A stretch of DNA of 64,000 bases from Chloroflexota bacterium (lineage in GTDB: Bacteria; Chloroflexota; Anaerolineae; JAAEKA01): contig JAKQCW010000180.1 in assembly GCA_029558955.1 (NCBI GenBank), positions 1,759 to 65,758 on the forward strand. Direction: 5' to 3'. Of this stretch, positions 29,592 to 61,674 are shown piece after piece (positions within the stretch are counted from its first letter, which is position 1; every line of letters starts with the position of its first letter). Below the pieces are notes generated by a model, which saw nothing but the letters and a program-made list of their open reading frames with translations, searched no databases and was not told the DNA's origin. The position numbers and the translations under genes were made by a program.

Positions 29592-31220
29592 ATGAACCGA
29601 CAATCGCTCACCAAACAGGCTCGTTGGCTTGTACCGCTGGCGCTGATCATCGCGCTGGCGGCGCCGGCAAGCACCATCCTGCCCGCTGCGCTGCGCAACA
29701 CATCCGAAGCTGCGCCGCTCCAACAAGCCAGCAACCTGACCTGGACCCAGGTCCATAGCGCGCCCGGCGTTTTTTGGTATACGGTTGACTTCCCCACCCC
29801 GCTGGTTGGCTATGCCTTGGGCGGGCCGGACTGGAACACCACCAGCGGCGGCACGGGCGCAGTGACCGTTGCCAAGACCACCGACGGCGGTCATACCTGG
29901 ACCAATATCCCCGTCCCCGGCACCAACCGCTTTATGCGCGGCTTGACCTGCATCGACGCGAACCGCTGTTGGATCATCGGCGCCAGCAGCCCGCGCATTC
30001 TCTACACCACCAACGGTGGGGCGAGCTGGGCGCCTGGTACCATCGTGAACAATGCCTGGAGCGGCTGGCTGTGGTCGGCCGGCTACAGCGGCGTCGACAC
30101 CACCATCTTCGCCGGCACCACCGGCTATGCCAACGAGCCGGGGCGCATGGCCAACGTGCTGCGCTCCACCGACGGCGTCAACTTCAACGCCGTCGTTGCC
30201 AATGACCCGCGCGAGTTCGTGATCTACGACTTTTCCTGCCCGTCGCCGGGTGTGTGCTATGCCGCGGCCAAGAACACGGCCTTCTACACGGCCAACAACG
30301 GCGCCACCTGGTCGCGCCGGGTGGTGCCTACCGGCCGCTACTACGGCGTCTCCTGTTCGGACAACTTATCCTGCTGGCAGGTGGGCGCAGCCGATGGCGG
30401 CGCCAACACCGGAGCCTACTACATTTTCCGCACCCAGGATGGCGGGAATATCTGGCAGCAGGCCAGTGCGATACCTGCCGGCAGCGGGCGCCCGCGCTTC
30501 TGGGGTATCGACATGGTGGATGGTCAGAACGGCTATGCCGTAGGCTGCACCAACGTGCCTGACCCCATCCTTGAGACTTGTTCCGGCCAGGGGCTGTTGA
30601 TGCGCACCACCGATGGCGTCACCTGGCAGCAAGTGGCATCTCCTTCTACGGCCGATCTCATGGATGTGTATGCCCTGAGCATGGATGAGGTGATCGTGAT
30701 CGACTGGAGCGGCAAGATTTGGCGCGGCGCGGGTGCGCCCACGCCGACCCCCACTGCCACCAACACGCCCACCGCCACGGCCACCCCAACCAGCACGCCG
30801 ACGCGCACCCCAACGCCCACGGCCACCCCCACCAACACCCCGACCCCCACGGCTACCCCCAGCACGGCGACGATTCTGGGCATGGCCTTTGCCGACGCCA
30901 ACGGCAACTTCTTCCCGGACGCCGGAGAGCCGGGCCTGGCTGGCGCCGTGATCGGACTGCAAGATGGCGCGTCCACCGTCATGAGCGCGACCTCGGACCC
31001 CAACGGGGCGTTCTCGTTCAGCGGCGTTGCGCCCGGGACCTACAGCGTGCGCGGGCTGGAAGCGCCGGCTGGCCATAGCCTGAGCGCGGGCGCTGCCATC
31101 ATCCAGGTGCAGGCCAACACCTCCTGGATGCTCTACACCCCCTTCGTGGTGGGCATCCCGACGCCGCCGCGCTACTGCGCCTATCTGCCGCAGGTGGAGG
31201 CCAGTTTCTCCGGGCAGTAG
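29592..31220 (+). CDS. Secreted BNR/YCF48-like beta-propeller protein with PT linker and SdrD/Cna-B-like domain
   Basis: Repeated (K/R)T(T/Q)DGG.(T/N)W and ANNGATW boxes, (PT)n linker, GMAFADANGN..DAGEPGLAG, terminal YLPQV. ATG after AAGGAG. Confidence 0.8.
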   Translation: MNRQSLTKQARWLVPLALIIALAAPASTILPAALRNTSEAAPLQQASNLTWTQVHSAPGVFWYTVDFPTPLVGYALGGPDWNTTSGGTGAVTVAKTTDGGHTWTNIPVPGTNRFMRGLTCIDANRCWIIGASSPRILYTTNGGASWAPGTIVNNAWSGWLWSAGYSGVDTTIFAGTTGYANEPGRMANVLRSTDGVNFNAVVANDPREFVIYDFSCPSPGVCYAAAKNTAFYTANNGATWSRRVVPTGRYYGVSCSDNLSCWQVGAADGGANTGAYYIFRTQDGGNIWQQASAIPAGSGRPRFWGIDMVDGQNGYAVGCTNVPDPILETCSGQGLLMRTTDGVTWQQVASPSTADLMDVYALSMDEVIVIDWSGKIWRGAGAPTPTPTATNTPTATATPTSTPTRTPTPTATPTNTPTPTATPSTATILGMAFADANGNFFPDAGEPGLAGAVIGLQDGASTVMSATSDPNGAFSFSGVAPGTYSVRGLEAPAGHSLSAGAAIIQVQANTSWMLYTPFVVGIPTPPRYCAYLPQVEASFSGQ

Positions 31221-31252
31221 ACGATGACCGGGTGAACTTGTCGCCGTTGCCG

Positions 31253-31289
31253 CTCCCGCCGGGTCTGTGATCCGGCGGGAGTTTTTTTT
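31253..31289 (+). terminator. Intrinsic terminator
   Basis: CTCCCGCCGG/CCGGCGGGAG stem followed by T8. Confidence 0.9.
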
Positions 31290-31325
31290 GCCCCGGCTCT
31301 CGCGAGCTGAATGGCCCCGGTCGCC

Positions 31326-31877
31326 CTACATGGGACGCCGCCAACGGGGGGCGCGGTTCAGGTAAACCTGCTGCCGGAGCTCGTCCGCGGCCGCGCGCAA
31401 TATGTCACGCACCTGGAACCAGGTCGCCTCGCTGAACTGCATGTCGCCCTGGTCCAGCAGATGCTGCAAGGCCTCCACCACCACCAGCACCCGCCCCTCG
31501 ATGGCCTCGACGCTGCCGCCGTAGAGGCCCGGCGGGATCAGGAAGACCAGGAAGATCAGCGAGACCGCCACGCCCAGCAGCAGCATGACCGGGAACTGGG
31601 GCATGATGCGGGCGCCGATGAGGATCACGGACAGCCAGAAGGCCAACACCGCGGCCAACACCATGGCGCGCGTGATCGGCCGGACCGGCTTGAGGTGGGT
31701 CAGCCGCGGGGCCAGCTTGTCATAGCTGCGCACATGCACCAGGAACTGGTTGAATTCCTGGCACAACGCATAGTTCACGCTGTCCTGGTCGAAGTTGGCC
31801 AGCCGCATGGCGTAGGCGTGGCATTCCTTGGCCAGGGTGTAGAATTCCTTGCGGGTCAGTTCAGTCTGGGCGTCCAT
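31326..31877 (-). CDS. Hypothetical membrane protein (2 TM)
   Basis: 183-aa ORF with normal composition and a central TM hairpin. TTGACT-17-TAGAAT promoter at 31963-31935. Confidence 0.75.
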   Translation of the reverse strand: MDAQTELTRKEFYTLAKECHAYAMRLANFDQDSVNYALCQEFNQFLVHVRSYDKLAPRLTHLKPVRPITRAMVLAAVLAFWLSVILIGARIMPQFPVMLLLGVAVSLIFLVFLIPPGLYGGSVEAIEGRVLVVVEALQHLLDQGDMQFSEATWFQVRDILRAAADELRQQVYLNRAPRWRRPM

Positions 31878-32121
31878 GGCGTGGGAGGGGGAGAGCTTGG
31901 CGGGCTTGGCGGGCTTGGCGTGAGGATCAGGAAGATTCTACCTGAAGTCGATCTCCCAGTCAAAGCCTTGTGCTGGCATCCAGCAATTCCACATGTGATG
32001 GCTGCAAACCGGAGCGGCGTCTACCGGCGATCCCCGCAGCGCGCAACAGGCTTCCAAGAGCCAAGAATCGCCGCCAGAACCGTATCGAGACCCAATGGTT
32101 GCCAGGTGCGGCCCGCTCGCT

Positions 32122-32186
32122 GGTCTCGCTACGCTGGAAGCGCGCGACCTCATGGGATTCATCTGCCCTCAACCCGCTACTCGACC
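32122..32186 (-). repeat. 65-bp long variant of REP-like family A
   Basis: Reverse complement aligns without gaps to 61774-61838 (50/65 identical by hand count). Confidence 0.7.
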
Positions 32187-32261
32187 AACGCTCGCTGGAT
32201 TCGTTCCAAGAGCGGCAGGCAGCCAGACCTATAGCCGTATACGGAGACCCCTCCCACCATT

Positions 32262-32334
32262 CCGGGTTACGCATTACGCATCACGCATTACGCATTACGC
32301 ATTACGCATCACGCATCACGCATCACGAGTTACG
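32262..32334. repeat. Heptamer microsatellite arm (TTACGCA/TCACGCA)n after CCGGGTTAC
   Basis: Direct reading. Same family as 36700, 46405, 47127, 48196, 57221, 59245 and 61190. Confidence 0.85.
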
Positions 32335-32347
32335 CTCCACGTTATCT

Positions 32348-32376
32348 TTGACATTGCCCCTCGGTGTAAGTACTAT
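32348..32376 (+). promoter_or_regulatory. Promoter for birA, probably leaderless
   Basis: TTGACA-17-TACTAT, 6 nt, then ATG 32383. No SD. Confidence 0.7.
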
Positions 32377-32382
32377 ACCCCC

Positions 32383-33174
32383 ATGTTCACCCTGACTCAG
32401 ACAACCATCGAGGAGCGACTGCGCACCTCTCTGTTGGGCCGGCCGCTGGTCTGCCTGAAGAGCGTCGAATCGACCCAGACCATCGTGCGTGAGGCGGCGC
32501 GGCGGGGCGAGGCCGAAGGACTGGCCGTGGTGGCCGGTCAGCAGACGGCCGGCAAGGGCCGCGCCGGCCGCAGTTGGTGGTCGCCCCCCAGCGGCGGGCT
32601 CTACCTTTCCCTGCTGCTGCGCCCCAATCTGCCGGGCGACCTGACGTCATGGACGGTCATGACCCTGACCCTGGGCGCGGCCGAGGCCATCGAGCAGCTC
32701 TACGGCCTGCCTGTGGCGATCAAATGGCCCAACGACCTGCTGATTCAGGGGCGCAAGCTGGCCGGCGTGCTGGCCGAGGGCGCGTTCATCGGCAGCCGGC
32801 TGGACTACGTGGTGGCAGGCATCGGCCTGAACGTGGCCACGGATTTCAGCAGCCAGCCGGAGCTGGCTGACACGGCCATCAGCCTGGAGGCCGCGCTGGG
32901 CGCAGCCGTGGACCCGGCCAGCCTGCTGGTTGCCCTGCTGGAGCACAGCGAGCGACACTATCTGGCCATGCAGGCCGGCGTCAGCCCGCTGGCAGCCTGG
33001 CAGGCGCGGCTGGACACGCTGGGCCGGCCGGTGACGGTGCATCTGGCCGATGGCCGGCTGGTGCATGGCGTGGCCGGCGCGGTGCTGCCCGATGGCGCCC
33101 TGCGCATCGACCTGGACGACGGCGGCAGCCAGGAGGTGCGCGCCCACGATGTGACCCTGCGCCATCAGAGTTAG
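32383..33174 (+). CDS. birA: Biotin-[acetyl-CoA carboxylase] ligase without N-terminal HTH
   Basis: STQ, QTAGKGRAGRSW, IKWPNDLL, RKLAGVL, GIGLNV. Confidence 0.93.
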   Translation: MFTLTQTTIEERLRTSLLGRPLVCLKSVESTQTIVREAARRGEAEGLAVVAGQQTAGKGRAGRSWWSPPSGGLYLSLLLRPNLPGDLTSWTVMTLTLGAAEAIEQLYGLPVAIKWPNDLLIQGRKLAGVLAEGAFIGSRLDYVVAGIGLNVATDFSSQPELADTAISLEAALGAAVDPASLLVALLEHSERHYLAMQAGVSPLAAWQARLDTLGRPVTVHLADGRLVHGVAGAVLPDGALRIDLDDGGSQEVRAHDVTLRHQS

Positions 33175-33176
33175 CT

Positions 33177-34370
33177 ATGCAATCTGCGCTGCCGCCTGAC
33201 CATTTCTACTATTTAGGCGAGGGGTTGGATCCCAGCATCGAGCTGTGGAACGCCGAGGAGATCCAGGAGGTGATCCCGCTGGCCTGGGTGGGCGATGGCC
33301 GCCACAGCGAGGAGAGCCTGTGGCTGGCCGAGCTGCCTGGATTGGCCGCGCGCGGGGGCGATGCGACCGGGCGCGAATGGCAGTTTCGCGTCAACCTGGG
33401 TGATGGCCGCCTGCTGCACCCCGAGTTCGCGCCGGCCTTCACCACCACCCTGGCCAGCCTGTGGCTGCAGGATGGCCAGATCTTCGCCTACCGTCCGGCG
33501 CCGGCCATCTCCCCGCCGATGGTGGTGAAATTCGAAGATTATCAGGGCAGCCTGGGGCCCCGGCCGCTCTACATCTATCTGCCGCGCGGCTATGCAGAAC
33601 ATGAGCAGCGGCGCTATCCGGTGCTTTACATGCACGACGGCCAGAACTGCTTCGATGCCTTCGTGGATGACAGCTACGCCGGCGCCTGGCAGGCCGATCT
33701 GGCCGCCAGCCTGCTGATCCGCCAGGGCCTGATGCGCGAGTGCCTGATCGTGGGGGTGAGCAACGGCCGGGAGCAGCGCATTCTGGAGTATCTGCCCCCC
33801 TACGCCAGGCATCTGCCGCCCCCGCGCCGGCCGCGTGCTGCCGTTGACCACGGCGACCACCCGCCCGCGCCGCGCCGGCCGCTGGTTCCTGTGCCAGGCC
33901 GGGCCAACGAGACACTGGCCTTCTACCGCGATGAGGTGGCGCCCTTCGTGGCGGCCCGCTACCGGGTGCAGCCGGGCCGGGAGAACACGGCCACCTGCGG
34001 CTCCTCCCTGGGCGGACTCTTCTCGGTCTACATCGCCTGGGAACAGACTGATTTTGCCCGCCATCACGCGGCCCTTTCCACCTCGTTTTGGATCACCCGC
34101 AACCGCGCCGGCCAGTTGGAGACCATCGAACGGATGCGCCGCAAGCCGCGCCGGGATGTGCGGCTTTGGCTGGACAGCGGCACCTACAGCACGCCCGGCC
34201 ACGGCAACGATGGACAGCGCGAAACAGCCAGCGCCCGGCGCGCGCTGCTGGAGGCGGGCTATCAGGAAGGGGTGGATTTTCACATCTATCTGGATGAGGG
34301 GGCGACCCACAGCGAGGCCTCCTGGGCGGCGCGGCTGCCGCTGATCTTTCAGTTCTTGTTTCCAAGCTGA
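33177..34370 (+). CDS. Putative esterase (alpha/beta hydrolase, Fes/IroE-like) with N-terminal extra domain
   Basis: IYLPRGY, YPVLYMHDGQN, GSSLGG nucleophile, LWLDSG, HSEASWAARLP. Confidence 0.88.
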   Translation: MQSALPPDHFYYLGEGLDPSIELWNAEEIQEVIPLAWVGDGRHSEESLWLAELPGLAARGGDATGREWQFRVNLGDGRLLHPEFAPAFTTTLASLWLQDGQIFAYRPAPAISPPMVVKFEDYQGSLGPRPLYIYLPRGYAEHEQRRYPVLYMHDGQNCFDAFVDDSYAGAWQADLAASLLIRQGLMRECLIVGVSNGREQRILEYLPPYARHLPPPRRPRAAVDHGDHPPAPRRPLVPVPGRANETLAFYRDEVAPFVAARYRVQPGRENTATCGSSLGGLFSVYIAWEQTDFARHHAALSTSFWITRNRAGQLETIERMRRKPRRDVRLWLDSGTYSTPGHGNDGQRETASARRALLEAGYQEGVDFHIYLDEGATHSEASWAARLPLIFQFLFPS

Positions 34371-36699: not shown

Positions 36700-36778
36700 C
36701 ACGTAACTCGTAACCCGGAAAGGGTTCGTCTGGGAGAGGCGTTTCCGGTTACGTGTTACGAGTTACGAGTTACGTGTC
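36700..36778. repeat. Heptamer-arm palindrome
   Basis: ACGTAACTCGTAACCCGGAA...TTCCGGTTACGTGTTACGAGTTACGAG. Confidence 0.8.
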
Positions 36779-46404: not shown

Positions 46405-47280
46405 GACTCGTAACTCGTAACTCGTAACTCGTAACCCGGAGTGTGTGGGGGGTGGGGGACTCGTAATGCGTAATGCGTAATGCGTAACCCGGAGTGTGTG
46501 GGGGGTGGGGGTTGTCTCTGAGTTGCGCGGAGGTGTGCGCGGCGATTCCATAGTTGGATGGAGTCGAGGCTTCAGCCGGGTCTGGACAGGAGATGGCGGA
46601 GGTGTGCGCGGCGATTCCATAGTTGGATGGAGTCGAGGCTTCAGCCGGGTCTGGACAGCAGATGGCGGAGGTGTACGCGGCGATTCCATAGTTGGATAGA
46701 GTCGAGGCTTCAGCCGGGTCTGGACAGGGGATGGCGGAGGTGTACGCGGCGATTCCATAGTTGGATGGAGTCGAGGCTTCAGCCGGGTCTGGACAGGAGA
46801 TGGCGGAGGTGTGCGCGGCGATTCCATAGTTGGATAGAGTCGAGGCTTCAGCCGGGTCTGGACAGCAGATGGCGGAGGTGTACGCGGCGATTCCATAGTT
46901 GGATGGAGTCGAGGCTTCAGCCGGGTCTGGACAGCAGATGGCGGAGGTGTGCGCGGCGATTCCATAGTTGGATGGAGTCGAGGCTTCAGCCGGGTCTGGA
47001 CGATGCGAGTTGAACGTGCCACTCCGGCTGAAGCCTCGACTCCAGTTTGAACGCCCCGCCTGAAGGCTCGACTCCAATTTGACCGCCATAACGCACGCCA
47101 CATACCCAAAGCCACCTCCCGCAGACTCCGGGTTACGCATTACGCATTACGCATCACTCGTCACATGCCACCCCGCCTGAAGGCTCGACTCCAATTTGAA
47201 CGCCATGACGCACGCCACATACCCAAAGCCACCTCCCGCAGACTCCGGGTTACGCATTACGCATTACGCATCACGAATCA
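46405..47280. repeat. Composite repeat island: heptamer arms flanking a 7 x 69-bp array of MITE-core half-sites and a ~117-bp duplication
   Basis: 69-bp units start at 46527 and each contains GGAGTCGAGGCTTCAGCCGGGTCTGGAC. The last unit completes the palindrome. Duplicated blocks start at 47054 and 47171. Confidence 0.9.
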
Positions 47281-56483: not shown

Positions 56484-57233
56484 ATGGCGACGACTCCCAA
56501 CGAAACCCAGGTGCGTGAGCTGGTTCGCTCGACCCTGGTGCGCCTGCTGCCTGAGCTGGCCGCGCCGGCGAGCGGCCAGAGCGGCGGTTCACCGGCCGCC
56601 TCCCAGCCGGCGCGCCCAGTGATCGACGCCGGCGCCGTGGCCCAGGCCGCACCCGGCTCGACGCTGGACATCCCCCCCGGCGCGCTGGTGACGCCGCTGG
56701 CCCGCGAGCTGGCGCTGGAGCGCAAGATCACCCTGGGTGCTGCCCTGCCGCTGCCGCCGGCGAAGAGCGCCGGGCAGCAGACCATCGCCCTGGGCGCGGA
56801 TCATGGCGGCTATGGATTGAAGGAGCAGCTCAAGCCGTTGTTGACCAAATTGGGCTGGCAGGTGGCCGACTGCGGCTGTCACAGCGCGGAGAGCGTGGAT
56901 TATCCCGACTACGCCTTCATTGTAGCGCGCATGGTGGCCGAGGGCCGCGCCCGCTGGGGGATCATGATCGACGGCGCAGGCATCGGCTCCTGCATGACCG
57001 CCAACAAGGTGCCCGGCGTGCGAGCGGCCATGTGCTACGATCAGGCCACGGCCGTCAACAGCCGCGCCCACAACCACGCCAACGTCCTGACCCTCGGCGC
57101 CGGCCTGATCGGTCCCGCCCTGGCCCAACAGATCGTCGAAACCTGGCTGGCCACCCCCTTCGGCCCCGACCGCCACGCGAAACGGGTCGAGAAGATCATG
57201 CAGATTGAGAGAAGGTTCGTGCGTAACTCGTAA
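56484..57233 (+). CDS. rpiB: RpiB/LacAB-family sugar-phosphate isomerase with N-terminal encapsulation-peptide-like extension
   Basis: GADHGGY, SVDYPDY, ANKVPGVRA, HNHANVL, RHAKRVEKI. Extension QVRELVRSTLVRLL and VTPLARE. Confidence 0.9.
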   Translation: MATTPNETQVRELVRSTLVRLLPELAAPASGQSGGSPAASQPARPVIDAGAVAQAAPGSTLDIPPGALVTPLARELALERKITLGAALPLPPAKSAGQQTIALGADHGGYGLKEQLKPLLTKLGWQVADCGCHSAESVDYPDYAFIVARMVAEGRARWGIMIDGAGIGSCMTANKVPGVRAAMCYDQATAVNSRAHNHANVLTLGAGLIGPALAQQIVETWLATPFGPDRHAKRVEKIMQIERRFVRNS

Positions 57234-57398
57234 CCCGGAATGACGGAGAGAGTCTCTGGGCTGCGTAACTCGTGACACGCAACCCGAATTTGCGGAGAAA
57301 ATCTCCGGGTTACGAGTTACGAGTTACGAGTTACCGACCGCAAACCACACATCCCACATCACACACGCATTACGCATCACGCATTACGCATCACGAAT
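57221..57398. repeat. Heptamer-arm elements between rpiB and deoC
   Basis: GCGTAACTCGTAACCCGG...CCGGGTTACGAG(TTACGAG)n...(TTACGCA/TCACGCA)n. Confidence 0.8.
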
Positions 57399-57402
57399 CA
57401 CT

Positions 57403-58278
57403 ATGCCCTCAACCAACTACTCTCTGGACCAACTGGTCGATATCATTACCCGCGAGGTGCTGAAGGTTTATCCTGGCGGCGGGCAGTCTTGCTCCGGCTG
57501 CGGGCAGGGCTGCGAGGGCAACTGCGCGGTCAACTGCCCTGACCGCTGCCGGGATGTGGTGCAGGCCGGCGCGGACCGGCTGAGCGCCCGCCTGGGCGCC
57601 GGCCAGGTGCCGGCCGACCTGGCGCGCATGATCGATCACACGCTGCTCAAGCCGGACGCCAGCCGCGCCGAGATCGTCAAGCTGTGCGACGAAGCGCGCG
57701 CCAACAGCTTCGCCACCGTCTGTGTCAACCCGGCCTGGGTGCCGCTCTGCGCCGACCTGCTGCGGGGCAGCCCGGTCAAGGTCTGCACCGTGGTGGGCTT
57801 TCCCCTGGGCGCGACCCTGCCCGAGGTCAAGGCCTTCGAGACGGAGCGAGCCATCGCCGGCGGCGCCAGCGAGATCGACATGGTGCAGAACATCGGCGCG
57901 CTCAAGTCGCACGATTACAAGCTGGTGGCCGACGATGTGGCCGCGGTGGTGCGCGCGGCCCACGCCCGCCAGGCCAGCGTCAAGGTGATCATCGAAGCGG
58001 CGCTGCTGAGCGACGAGGAGAAGGTCGAGAGCTGCACCATCGCCCTGGCCGCCGGCGCAGATTATGTCAAAACATCCACCGGCTTCGCCTCCGGCGGCGC
58101 CACCGCGGCCGATGTGGCGTTGATGCGCCAGGTGGTAGGGCCGGGCGTCGGCGTCAAGGCGGCCGGCGGCATCCGCTCCGGCAAGGACGCCCAAGCCATG
58201 ATCGCGGCTGGCGCCACCCGTTTGGGCGCCAGCGCGGGCATCAAGATCATCAAAGAGGTCGCAGGAGGCCCGGCATGA
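57403..58278 (+). CDS. deoC: Deoxyribose-phosphate aldolase with N-terminal encapsulation peptide and Cys-rich linker
   Basis: [48 protein letters not shown]. Confidence 0.95.
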
Positions 58279-58562
58279 CCTTCCCTTCCACCGGCGCCGC
58301 CGCCAACCCCGACCGTGTCGGCGATCTGGCCATCCTGCTGGGGCACGCCATGCAGTGCGAGCCCTGCCGCGAGCGCCTGCTGGCCGCGCCGGAGCGGGCC
58401 ACGGTGGGTCGCAAGCTCAGCGCGGAGCAGCGGCAGCGTTTGCTGGCGCTGACCAACGAGGATTTCGAGAACATGGAGCTGCTGGCGCAGGCCTCGGGTC
58501 TTGACCAGCAAGAGCTACGCGAGGGCATCGACCACCCGCGCGCCCGCCTGCGCCATCTGTAA
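58275..58562 (+). CDS. 95-aa protein resembling the NHLP/Nif11-related (Os1348/Franean1_4349-like) helical fold, with CxxC
   Basis: ATG after GGAGG overlapping the deoC stop (ATGA). [29 protein letters not shown]. Not called at this start in the ORF track. Confidence 0.7.
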
Positions 58563-58599
58563 TGACAGGACTGACCGTCCTCCGAGAAAGGATCCCCCT

Positions 58600-59235
58600 G
58601 TGAGCGTCGATCTGCGTTCCTACGTTTTTCTGGATAGCCTGCAGCCGCAGCATGCGGCGTTTCTGGGCACCGTGGCGCGCGGCTTCTTGCCCCTGCCCTA
58701 CGACGCCTCGCTTTGGATCGAGATCTCCCCCGGCATCGAGATCAACCGCATCACCGACATCGCGCTCAAGGCCACGCGCGTGCGGCCGGGCATGCAGATC
58801 GTCGAGCGGCGCTACGGCCTGCTGGAGGTCCACTCCGAGTCGCAGGCTGAGACGCGCGCGGCTGGCGCGGCCATTCTGGAGGCGCTGGGGCTGGCCGAAG
58901 CCAACCGCATGCGGCCGCGCATCCTCTCCAGCCAGATCATCCGCAACATCGACGCCCACCAGGTGCAGTTGATCAACCGCATGCGCCATGGCCACATGCT
59001 GCTGGCCGGCCAAACGCTCTACGTGCTGGAGGTGGAACCGGCCGGCTACGCCGCGCTGGCGGCCAACGAGGCTGAAAAGCGGGCCAACATCAACATTCTG
59101 GAAGTCATGGCCTTCGGCGCCTTTGGCCGCGTCTACCTGGGCGGCGACGAGCGCGACATCATGGCCGGCTACGGCGCCGCCGTGGCCGCGCTGGAAGGGG
59201 TCAGCGGACGCGACCCCGGCGGCGCCAGCGACTGA
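58600..59235 (+). CDS. BMC-T shell protein, stacking trimer (CcmP/CsoS1D-like)
   Basis: [68 protein letters not shown]. Confidence 0.92.
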
Positions 59236-59244
59236 CCGGTGCGT

Positions 59245-59605
59245 CGTAACACGTAATGCGTAATGCGTAATGCGTAACCCGGAATCTCGGACAGACGGAA
59301 GTCGTTTCCGGATTACGCATTACTCGTTACTCGTTACTCATCTCCGGAATCTCGGACAAACAGAAGTCCTTTCCGGATTACGCATTACTCGTTACTCGTT
59401 ACTCATCCCCGGAATCTCGGACAAACGGAAGTCGTTTCCGGATTACGCATTACTCGTTACTCGTTACTCATCCCCCAGAATTTCGCCCAAACAGAAGTCC
59501 TTTCCGGATTACGCATTACTCGTTACTCGTTACTCATCCCCCAGAATCTCGCCCAAACAGAAGTCCTTTCCGGGTTACGAGTTACGAGTTACGCATTACT
59601 CATCC
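59245..59605. repeat. Five 65-66-bp tandem units with heptamer arms between BMC-T and BMC-H
   Basis: Units at 59279, 59344, 59409, 59475 and 59541: CC(G/A)GAAT..GAAGTC.TTTCCGGATTACGCATTACTCGTTACTCG. Confidence 0.9.
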
Positions 59606-59638
59606 CCCATCCCATTTCAAACACAAGGAGTACTCCTC

Positions 59639-59932
59639 ATGGCTGAAGCACTAGGCATGATCGAAACCAAAGGATTTGCCGCCATGGTCGAGGCCTCGGA
59701 CGCGATGGTCAAGGCGGCCAAGGTCGAGCTGGTTGGCTACGAAAAGATCGGCGGCGGCTATGTGACCGCCATCGTGCGCGGCGACGTGGCGGCTGTCAAG
59801 GCCGCGGTGGAAGCTGGCGTGCGCGGGGCCGAAAAGGTCGGCGAGGTGGTCTCGGTCCACGTCATCCCGCGGCCGCACAGCAACGTCGACCAGGTGTTGC
59901 CCCTGGGACGCCAGGGCGACGCAGAGGGATAG
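59639..59932 (+). CDS. BMC-H hexameric shell protein (PduA/EutM/CcmK-like)
   Basis: [43 protein letters not shown]. Confidence 0.96.
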
Positions 59933-59937
59933 AGGCC

Positions 59938-60480
59938 ATGCAGAACATCTGGCGCGATCTGCGCACGGGGCCTGACGCCCCGGACACGATCTATGTCATT
60001 GTCGAGATCCCCAAGGGCTCGCGCAATAAATACGAATACCAGAAGGCCAACGGCGTGATCTTTCTCGATCGCGTCCTCTACTCCTCCATGGTCTATCCCG
60101 GCGACTACGGCCTGATTCCGCGCACCTTCTACGAGGACGGCGACCCGCTGGACATCATCGTGATGGTCAACGAGCCGACCTTCCCCGGCTGTATCATCCA
60201 GGCGCGGCCCATCGGCATCTTCCGCATGTTGGACCGCGACCAGGAGGACGCCAAGATCCTGGCCGTGCCGGCCACCGATCCAGGCTTCAATGAATACCAT
60301 GATCTGAGCGACGTGCCGCAGAGCTTCCTGAATGAGGTCGCGCACTTCTTCGAGGTCTACAAGGACCTGGAGGGTCAGCGCACCAAGCCCATCGGCTGGG
60401 AAAACGCCGCCGCGGCCAAGGCCGAGATCATGCGCTCGGTGGCGCTCTATCAGGAACGCTTTGGCCTGAAGGAGCTCTAG
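59938..60480 (+). CDS. ppa: Family I inorganic pyrophosphatase
   Basis: EIPKGSRNKYEY, DRVL, YGLIP, DGDPLD, FFEVYKDLE. Confidence 0.95.
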   Translation: MQNIWRDLRTGPDAPDTIYVIVEIPKGSRNKYEYQKANGVIFLDRVLYSSMVYPGDYGLIPRTFYEDGDPLDIIVMVNEPTFPGCIIQARPIGIFRMLDRDQEDAKILAVPATDPGFNEYHDLSDVPQSFLNEVAHFFEVYKDLEGQRTKPIGWENAAAAKAEIMRSVALYQERFGLKEL

Positions 60481-60482
60481 CT

Positions 60483-61189
<707 letters not shown>

Positions 61190-61193
<4 letters not shown>

Positions 61194-61345
61194 TGCGTAA
61201 TGCGTAATGCGTAACCGGAAAGGTCTGTTGCCGTATGGGAATTGGCTCTGGGTTACGGGTTACGGGTTACGGGCTCCGGGCTCTGAGCTCCGGGTTACGG
61301 GTTACGAGTTACGAGTTACGAGTTACGGGTTTCAGGCTCCGAGTT
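61190..61345. repeat. Heptamer-arm palindrome between MBL and eutN
   Basis: (GTAATGC)3GTAACCGG...(GTTACGG/GTTACGA)n. The MBL stop is its first TAA. Confidence 0.85.
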
Positions 61346-61380
61346 ACAGGCCACTCTTCACGTTTCACCAAGAGGCTCCC

Positions 61381-61674
61381 ATGCTAATCGGCAAAGTCGT
61401 TGGCGCCGTCGTTTCTACGGCGAAAGATGAAAAGATGCAGAGCCTGCGCCTGATGGTGGTGCGCACCATGACCGTCGACGGCCAGGAGGGAAGCGGCTAT
61501 GTGGTAGCCGTGGACGCGGTCGGCTCCGGCGTGGGCGAGGTGGTGCTCTACGCCAGCGGCTCCTCCGCGCGCCAGACCATCCTGACCGACAAGCGCCCGG
61601 TGGACGCGGTGATCATGGCCATCGTCGACACCTGGGATGTAGATGGGCAGGTGCAGTATCAAAAATCAGGCTGA
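61381..61674 (+). CDS. eutN: BMC-P vertex protein (EutN/CcmL family)
   Basis: MLIGKVVGAVVST, VAVDAVGSGVGEVVL, GSSAR, PVDAVIMAIVD. Confidence 0.95.
   Translation: MLIGKVVGAVVSTAKDEKMQSLRLMVVRTMTVDGQEGSGYVVAVDAVGSGVGEVVLYASGSSARQTILTDKRPVDAVIMAIVDTWDVDGQVQYQKSG

Follow-up and report, generated by a model that had tools for sequence, protein, structure and literature searches.

The deoC gene and its N-terminal arm

The window analysed here is a 64,000-nucleotide stretch of a Chloroflexota bacterium (assembly GCA_029558955.1, contig JAKQCW010000180.1), and the element in question is a deoC gene on its plus strand (57403..58278). The gene was assigned from its open reading frame (ORF) and from matches in Pfam and the PDB. 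It codes for a DERA of 291 residues, the signature enzyme of a bacterial microcompartment (BMC) of the SPU6 type, where SPU stands for sugar-phosphate utilisation. The operon around it is co-directional and contains, in this order, an S26 signal peptidase, RpiB, the DERA, a protein of 95 residues, BMC-T(dp), BMC-H, an inorganic pyrophosphatase, an MBL-fold hydrolase and BMC-P. Six closely spaced cysteines in the N-terminal arm of the DERA are the subject of this analysis. As a member of the SPU6 DERA family the protein is unexceptional, and its six-Cys arrangement is a clade-specific elaboration of a four-Cys core found family-wide.

A class I aldolase TIM barrel is formed by residues 77-281 (57631..58245, plus strand), as seen from Pfam, AlphaFold2, solved DERAs and the alignment of catalytic residues. 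PF01791 (DeoC) matches exactly this range with an E-value of 1.1e-13 (51.8 bits against a cut-off of 23.8). The closest DERA in the PDB is 6d33 (E=2.6e-83), which covers residues 72-284. Asp159 (in EIDMV), Lys223 (the Schiff-base lysine in DYVKTSTG) and Lys252 (in GVKAAGG) align with Asp102, Lys167 and Lys201 of the E. coli enzyme, and all three are invariant in our 46-sequence alignment of the family. The ORF is a DeoC/DERA family member with an intact barrel, and cleavage of deoxyribose 5-phosphate is its predicted activity.

The first 76 residues are an add-on ahead of the barrel. Solved DERAs align with the protein only from residues 66-76 on, the sole exception being 1n7k, which aligns from residue 49, and the extension is absent from all 13 Bacillota DeoC genes in the sample of loci described below. 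The remark in the first-pass annotation that ordinary DeoC has no such site is borne out by both comparisons. Four parts can be distinguished in the arm. The most N-terminal one is an amphipathic helix at residues 8-22 (57424..57468, plus strand), recognised by AlphaFold2, hydrophobic moment, conservation and the literature. No other 15-mer among the first 75 residues has as high a helical hydrophobic moment (muH 0.64, a value reached by 1% of shuffles), and AlphaFold2 predicts it as a helix with a predicted local distance difference test score (pLDDT) of about 70. It is kept in the 116 close homologues that carry the extension and across phyla, and it has no counterpart in homologues outside microcompartments. 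All SPU-associated DERAs were reported to have an N-terminal extension of about 70 residues with an amphipathic helix and two low-confidence beta strands, regarded as a putative encapsulation peptide (EP) (Dwyer, Sutter and Kerfeld 2024, Commun Biol 7:1562, PMC11585597). The prediction that residues 8-22 are an EP is well supported by the sequence and by this family precedent, in agreement with the likeness to microcompartment targeting peptides seen in the first-pass annotation.

A short Pro/Gly linker with the sequence YPGGGQS follows at residues 23-29 (57469..57489, plus strand), delimited by AlphaFold2 and the homologue alignment. Its residues 23-26 have pLDDT values below 50, and its sequence is variable among homologues. 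The cysteine cluster occupies residues 30-49 (57490..57549, plus strand; from sequence and alignment). The fourth part is a helix-strand element at residues 47-69 (57541..57609, plus strand), for which AlphaFold2 gives a helix at 46-54 and a strand at 60-62 with pLDDT of 73-84. This element resembles the alpha7/beta8 unit of the enzyme itself, residues 261-283 (58183-58251). When the N-terminal profile is aligned with the core profile by hhalign, the match has P=3.6e-5 and a probability of 71%, and the same internal match is seen against DERAs in the PDB. The resemblance suggests that part of the targeting arm may have been built by duplication of the C-terminal barrel unit.

Canonical EPs such as those of PduP, PduD and EutC share with this arm a helix at the N-terminus of a cargo enzyme, amphipathic and about 15 residues long, which is absent from non-microcompartment homologues. 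Their linker, however, is flexible and poorly conserved, whereas the linker region here contains a conserved cluster of four to six cysteines and a helix-strand element. Among the closest known relatives is the SPU6 DERA of Chloroflexi bacterium GWB2_54_36 (PMC11585597). The two agree in enzyme family, phylum-level host, operon type, adjacent RPI and a roughly 70-residue extension with amphipathic helix, and the residues Asp165, Lys229 and Lys258 of that protein are the window residues Asp159, Lys223 and Lys252 plus six. That study treats the whole extension as a putative EP and deletes it. The clade of the window protein is Caldilineales-like and has six cysteines instead of four.

The cysteines are found at residues 30, 33, 37, 41, 45 and 49, with the spacing C-x2-C-x3-C-x3-C-x3-C-x3-C. 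This is exactly the motif given in the first-pass annotation, whose segment 57403-57549 corresponds to residues 1-49. Cysteine makes up about 1.0% of the residues in long open frames of this genome. The probability of at least six cysteines in a given 20-mer is about 4e-8, so that about 0.05 such windows are expected per proteome, and chance is therefore no explanation for the cluster. Cys30, Cys37, Cys41 and Pro46 are invariant in the 46-sequence alignment, Cys33 is at least 90% conserved, and Cys45 and Cys49 are variable. In the core, a glycine follows the second cysteine and a proline the last one, and four cysteines lie within about 12-15 residues of a cytoplasmic protein.

The relation of this segment to known families was searched in Pfam and the PDB. 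A Pfam scan of the N-terminus with E-values up to 1 gave no family match, and the best Fer4 match on a relative was not significant (E=0.18). A profile search of the PDB with the N-terminus returned the N-terminal helix of DERAs, coiled-coil noise (hemagglutinin), designed helical proteins and iron-sulfur (Fe-S) proteins. The last are the only matches to the cysteine stretch besides those other three classes, and they are insignificant (HdrC, E=0.1; a 4Fe-4S protein, E=0.14). Membership in the Fer4 clan was rejected on these results, the likeness being limited to cysteine spacing and the C-P pair. Membership in the zinc ribbon or knuckle families was also rejected, as no zinc-finger family or PDB zinc protein was matched and only one CxxC is present. 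Within this genome, the other real-looking proteins that match CxxCx3-4Cx3C are four 4Fe-4S ferredoxin domains and one frame without a Pfam match.

Conservation and loss of the cysteine cluster

The extension is present in 116 of the 120 best homologues, and at least four cysteines are found in 115 of those 116. The most frequent spacing is C-x2-C-x4-C-x3-C (n=58), followed by the six-Cys 2-3-3-3-3 arrangement of the window protein (n=42) and C-x2-C-x3-C-x3-C (n=11). Cys45 and Cys49 are confined to some clades and are lost jointly. The first-pass annotation had proposed that its reading would fall if the cysteines were not conserved in orthologues. They are conserved in the close orthologues and also in most distant extension-bearing DERAs. 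Only four of the six are broadly kept, however; Cys45 and Cys49 are clade-specific, and seven loci have none at all.

We searched residues 1-80 alone with phmmer against 1.8 billion representative proteins, and 73 proteins were matched. Nearly all of them are N-termini of DERAs or fusions that include a DERA; the few long matches outside the DERAs are repeat proteins. The module is thus not common to other cargo enzymes, and the idea that it might also occur on other cargo proteins was rejected by this N-terminus-only search. The four-Cys spacing in these matches is close but variable, with CxxCx3Cx3CP, CxCx4Cx3CP, Cx3Cx4Cx3C and Cx5-9CxxCxxC all observed. As a search with the N-terminus favours Cys-containing sequences, 80 further loci were fetched through motifs of the barrel. 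The region upstream of each barrel was read and its cysteines were counted by hand.

In this barrel-motif sample the helix is found in about 60 genes from Chloroflexota, Acidobacteriota, Actinomycetota, Planctomycetota, Bacteroidota, Ignavibacteriota, Gemmatimonadota and Elusimicrobiota, many of them flanked by RPI and shell genes. At least four cysteines are present in about 33 of these extension-bearing genes, three in three, two in about 13, one in three and none in seven. Shell genes stand in the flank of six of the seven zero-Cys loci. Overall, the four-Cys core recurs in extension-bearing DERAs of at least eight phyla and also in RPI-DERA and flavoprotein-DERA fusions.

A maximum-likelihood tree was made from the barrels and read together with the manual counts. 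All major clades of this tree include the four-Cys state, with the reduced states nested inside it. The zero-Cys loci L007, L009, L012 and L014 are sister to the four-Cys L005, and the Actinomycetota form a series from four to three to one to no cysteine. Several lineages are reduced to two cysteines, and three have lost the cluster almost or wholly. Different pairs remain in different places: two Anaerolineaceae loci (L015, L016) have kept only the outer pair of Cx3Cx4Cx3C, L034 and L036 from another clade only the inner pair, and four Pyrinomonadaceae only the last CxxxC. A few lineages have three cysteines and a histidine, and odd-number or three-Cys-plus-His variants are represented by P0127, L046, L026 and P0125. 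The four-Cys core is probably ancestral, judging from its distribution, and it is clearly under selection in most lineages. Since seven extension-bearing loci are without any cysteine, the cluster is accessory and not essential. It is dispensable and plastic.

One clade labelled Heliomicrobium or Acidobacteriota (L023, L025, L026, L027) has C-S-P-H-H-I-A-C in place of the cluster, that is, two cysteines and two adjacent histidines. A different set of ligands might occupy this position there.

The module also occurs in fusion proteins. Five DERA fusions (L017 6212-7768, L020 6110-7759, P0143, P0162 and P0175) are ordered as EP, flavoprotein-like domain, Cys-rich linker and barrel, and in some relatives the flavoprotein domain PF02441 (E=1.6e-5) lies directly upstream of the cysteine cluster. 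The Ozemobacter-like L017 and L020 have two separate four-Cys groups, CTTCx5CxxC and Cx4Cx6Cx3CP, with the flavoprotein domain upstream. RPI-EP-Cys-DERA fusions are encoded at L008, L053, L045 and L059, and L077 has the same fusion without cysteines. CxxCxxC variants are seen in some fusion proteins. Flavoprotein-DERA fusions of Hodarchaeales (bioRxiv 10.1101/2025.11.08.687404) are likewise DERAs with an upstream fused domain and an EP at the terminus or in the linker, and EP-dependent recruitment was reported for the Flav+DERA protein. That preprint is silent on linker cysteines, whereas the bacterial fusions found here carry a four-Cys group in exactly that linker.

The surrounding microcompartment locus

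The order of the operon is conserved in three related assemblies (L081-L083), where genes for an aldehyde dehydrogenase and a BMC-T come next. Close homologues of the DERA are labelled Caldilineales or Anaerolineae. The SPU6 type was described by Sutter et al. 2021 and Dwyer et al. 2024. In the window, the DERA and an RpiB-family gene are clustered with BMC-H, BMC-T and BMC-P shell genes, and an acylating aldehyde dehydrogenase with EP is encoded outside the window on contig C147. The operon is an SPU6-type sugar-phosphate-utilisation microcompartment operon.

The RpiB-like partner (56484..57233, plus strand; PF02502, E=1.6e-50, ORF residues 135-272) also bears an EP helix at its N-terminus. 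This helix and a segment reading PPGALVTPLARELA belong to an extension of about 100 residues, in which there are no cysteines. An aspartate replaces the catalytic cysteine (IDGAGIG), in agreement with published SPU RPIs. Both the Cys-to-Asp change and an RPI-DERA complex have been published (PMC11585597).

Directly after deoC an ORF for a 95-residue protein without a Pfam family is found (58275..58562, plus strand), whose start overlaps the deoC stop (ATGA). Homologues are present at the same position in L081, L082 and L083 and also in L047, with G-H-x3-C-x2-C near the N-terminus and R-x-R-H-[LF] at the C-terminus; 79 more distant loci lack it. The H-x3-C-x2-C element recalls the zinc-binding anti-sigma (ZAS) motif. 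This protein was considered as a partner covarying with the DERA cysteines and rejected, being confined to the close Chloroflexota clade of L047 and L081-L083. It cannot discriminate, because the three full-length DERAs beside it (L081-L083) all have at least four cysteines.

The shell genes follow on the plus strand. A BMC-T(dp)-type protein is encoded at 58501..59235, with the true start probably later than 58501; its BMC match is weak, and the syntenic genes of L081-L083 carry PF27545 CsoS1D_N. BMC-H (59639..59932; PF00936, E=5.4e-30) and the vertex protein BMC-P of the EutN/CcmL type (61207..61674; PF03319, E=1.4e-26) enclose the inorganic pyrophosphatase and the MBL-fold hydrolase (59938-61193, plus strand). 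This placement of the pair is kept in L081 and L083, and in L082 the pair stands after the BMC-P genes.

The aldehyde dehydrogenase on contig C147 (32328-33821, minus strand) was recognised from its sequence, by inspection, and from the PF00171 genes syntenic with it in L082 and L083, and it has an EP-like N-terminal helix, LDNAQIQSIVQRVQREL. On the same strand a tandem BMC-T lies about 1.8 kb away (29925-33821 for the whole segment). Two unrelated-looking ORFs are placed in between, one apparently an ATPase by its P-loop GKNGAGKS. In L082 and L083 the dehydrogenase is inside the main operon, and in L083 BMC-T comes directly after it. The BMC-T of C147 reads HPGR, where the Fe-S-binding BMC-T type reads CPGK. 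No PduS is encoded in the operon; the rest of the genome was not searched for it. SPU6 loci are described as lacking PduS in the literature.

The intergenic regions contain a repeat of their own. Its elements are built from TTACGAG heptamers in tandem and the reverse complement of these, on the flanks of short hairpins, at 57221-57400, 59245-59640, 61190-61330, 36700-36776 and 46405-46434, and a 14-mer of these elements has 14 matches against 0 expected. Where the elements are translated, they give spurious long N-termini to the predicted BMC-H and BMC-P ORFs.

Nature of the cysteine cluster and its meaning

The EP half of the first-pass annotation is already published, and the cysteine cluster is apparently undescribed in the searchable literature. 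In the main text of PMC11585597, cysteine, metal and redox are mentioned only for other matters (the catalytic cysteine of RPI, carbamidomethylation and references). Within the searchable literature, neither the 2021 catalogue nor the later papers touching SPU DERA discuss the cysteines of the arm. The 2024 study reported that full-length SPU6 DERA is insoluble in E. coli, and that an N-terminally deleted form is soluble, dimeric and active and forms a 1:1 complex with RPI (PMC11585597). Because the deleted enzyme stays active, the cluster is not catalytic.

We propose, at about evenly balanced probability, that the cysteines form a small Cys-ligated metal centre, which would link the targeting helix to the barrel as a structural or redox hinge. 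Its ligands would come from the widely conserved four-Cys core, to which the window clade would have added a further pair of cysteines. The first-pass annotation had inferred an Fe-S or zinc module or a redox switch, a reading that is partly supported. The centre would probably rigidify the hinge between targeting helix and enzyme or render it redox-responsive, and it would affect the packing of cargo rather than catalysis. That a metal is bound, which metal it would be and what part it would play in assembly are all inferred. Within this proposal an Fe-S centre is possible and a zinc site is a lesser possibility, the former being somewhat more likely than the latter. Several features hint at metal and at Fe-S in particular. 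The proline after the last cysteine (CPDR, CPER, CPEK) occurs as in ferredoxin motifs, and CxxCxxC variants, the lineages with three cysteines and a histidine, the flavoprotein fusions and the two four-Cys groups of L017 and L020 are counted on the same side. The genome's other matches to the spacing pattern are mostly ferredoxins, and Fe-S proteins appear among the insignificant PDB matches; we count both for Fe-S. The [4Fe-4S] motifs of ferredoxins (CxxCxxCxxxCP, and CxxCx4Cx3CP of the DmsB, NarH and NrfC type) share with the arm close cysteines, a glycine after the second and a proline after the last. The arm differs from them in having no significant Fer4 match, no second half-motif and another fold context. 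In ferredoxins, the cysteine of the CP pair ligates the second cluster.

A number of observations weigh against a metal centre. No known metal-binding family matches the segment, either in Pfam or significantly in the PDB, and AlphaFold2 confidence is low over residues 23-40 (pLDDT 51-60). The cluster can be lost, as L007, L009, L012, L014, L058, L069 and L077 have no cysteine and L040, L052 and L067 have one. Furthermore, at least four lineages stably hold exactly two cysteines, the pair differing by lineage. These stable two-Cys forms are not predicted by a monomeric four-ligand site, and they would fit paired disulfides or a centre bridging the subunits of the DERA dimer. The number of cysteines also shows no relation to heme-copper oxidase genes in 40 genomes. 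PF00115 (COX1) is encoded by 34 of them, namely the window genome and 33 of the 39 others, and the DERAs of the six without it have 4, 0, 4, 0, 2 and 4 cysteines. A link between cysteine loss and an aerobic lifestyle was rejected on this result. Finally, flanking ORFs of the Actinomycetota clade were clustered, and those of loci with three or four cysteines were compared with those of loci with none or one. No flanking gene is lost along with the cysteines; the core microcompartment genes are common to all Actinomycetota loci, and none is specific to the Cys-bearing ones. The same clustering rejected a partner gene co-lost with the cysteines.

The stable pairs bring forward a different chemistry, in which the cysteines form intra- or intermolecular disulfides that staple a hairpin or act as a redox switch, locking or cross-linking the arm once the cargo is in a more oxidising lumen. 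We regard this as the main rival explanation, possible though doubtful. The cysteine counts are mostly even (6, 4, 2, 0), the change from six to four in the window clade removes Cys45 and Cys49 together, and the pairs kept in L015 and L016 (outer) and in L034 and L036 (inner) correspond to the two cross-strand pairs of a beta-hairpin. Redox-sensitive cysteines are known in carboxysome scaffold proteins, which gives a parallel. The published AlphaFold model of an SPU6 DERA has 'two beta strands' in this region (PMC11585597), and heme-copper oxidases are encoded in most of the 40 genomes. On the other hand, the odd-number and three-Cys-plus-His variants exist, and the proline after the last cysteine and the CxxCxxC variants resemble metal motifs. 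Cys37, Cys41, Cys45 and Cys49 are spaced i, i+4, and Cys41 to Cys49 lie on or beside helical turns in the predicted model, which would be poor geometry for a disulfide. Many of the hosts are apparently anaerobes, to judge from their taxon labels and the general lifestyle of groups such as Anaerolineae, Elusimicrobiota, Heliomicrobium and Ozemobacter. They offer no obvious oxidant, and structural disulfides are therefore unlikely.

A purely structural Zn(Cys)4 knuckle without redox role, which would stiffen the arm and hold the EP helix at a fixed distance from the barrel, seems to us unlikely. Four close cysteines with Gly-rich turns (CSGCGQGC) are compatible with it, and the module occurs in aerobes and anaerobes alike and is unnecessary for catalysis (PMC11585597). 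But the spacing is unlike that of canonical ribbons and knuckles, which have two CxxC pairs at least 10 residues apart, and zinc-finger families and PDB zinc proteins are missing even from the weak matches. The flavoprotein fusions, like the tandem four-Cys groups of L017 and L020, are more suggestive of an electron-transfer chain, and the stable two-Cys variants stand against this site as against any monomeric four-ligand site. Very improbable, in our judgement, are free thiols with a chemical role, for example as a sacrificial trap for acetaldehyde or crotonaldehyde, or a merely tolerated, weakly selected feature of the linker. DERA makes acetaldehyde within the compartment and is known to be inactivated by such reactive aldehydes, and the cluster is dispensable in several lineages and drifts in its exact positions. 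However, a stoichiometric scavenger would be spent after a few turnovers, and four cysteines that keep short regular spacings in at least eight phyla, together with the Pro or Asp conserved behind the last cysteine, are too ordered for a thiol sink.

If the cysteines are only a dispensable structural staple, the cluster is a minor annotation detail. If the arm carries a metal or redox centre, more would follow. SPU compartments rank with the most widespread microcompartments of bacteria, with homologous systems reported in Asgard archaea, and studies of their signature enzyme have so far been limited to forms with the N-terminal arm cut off. The insolubility of the full-length enzyme in aerobic E. 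coli expression may then partly reflect a missing cofactor, and encapsulation peptides would not always be a simple 'helix plus floppy linker'. The cluster and its neighbouring helix also amount to a compact natural Cys-rich tag beside a targeting helix, usable in engineering. Were Fe-S bound, which we hold to be a speculative prospect, the SPU DERA would be the first cargo aldolase whose targeting arm carries a redox cofactor. This cofactor might then be a redox or O2 sensor that gates condensation and encapsulation, or part of an electron path in the lumen. The idea of a redox cofactor in the lumen is shared with the Fe-S metabolosome parts of the PduS/MNdh and PduT type, to which the arm has no homology. 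As an electron path, it would be fed by the adjacent flavoprotein domain in the related fusions and could help to re-oxidise NADH in SPU6 compartments that lack PduS. The arm may in this case regulate cargo loading or the redox balance of the lumen, with a bearing on how NAD+ is recycled in SPU6 compartments without PduS.

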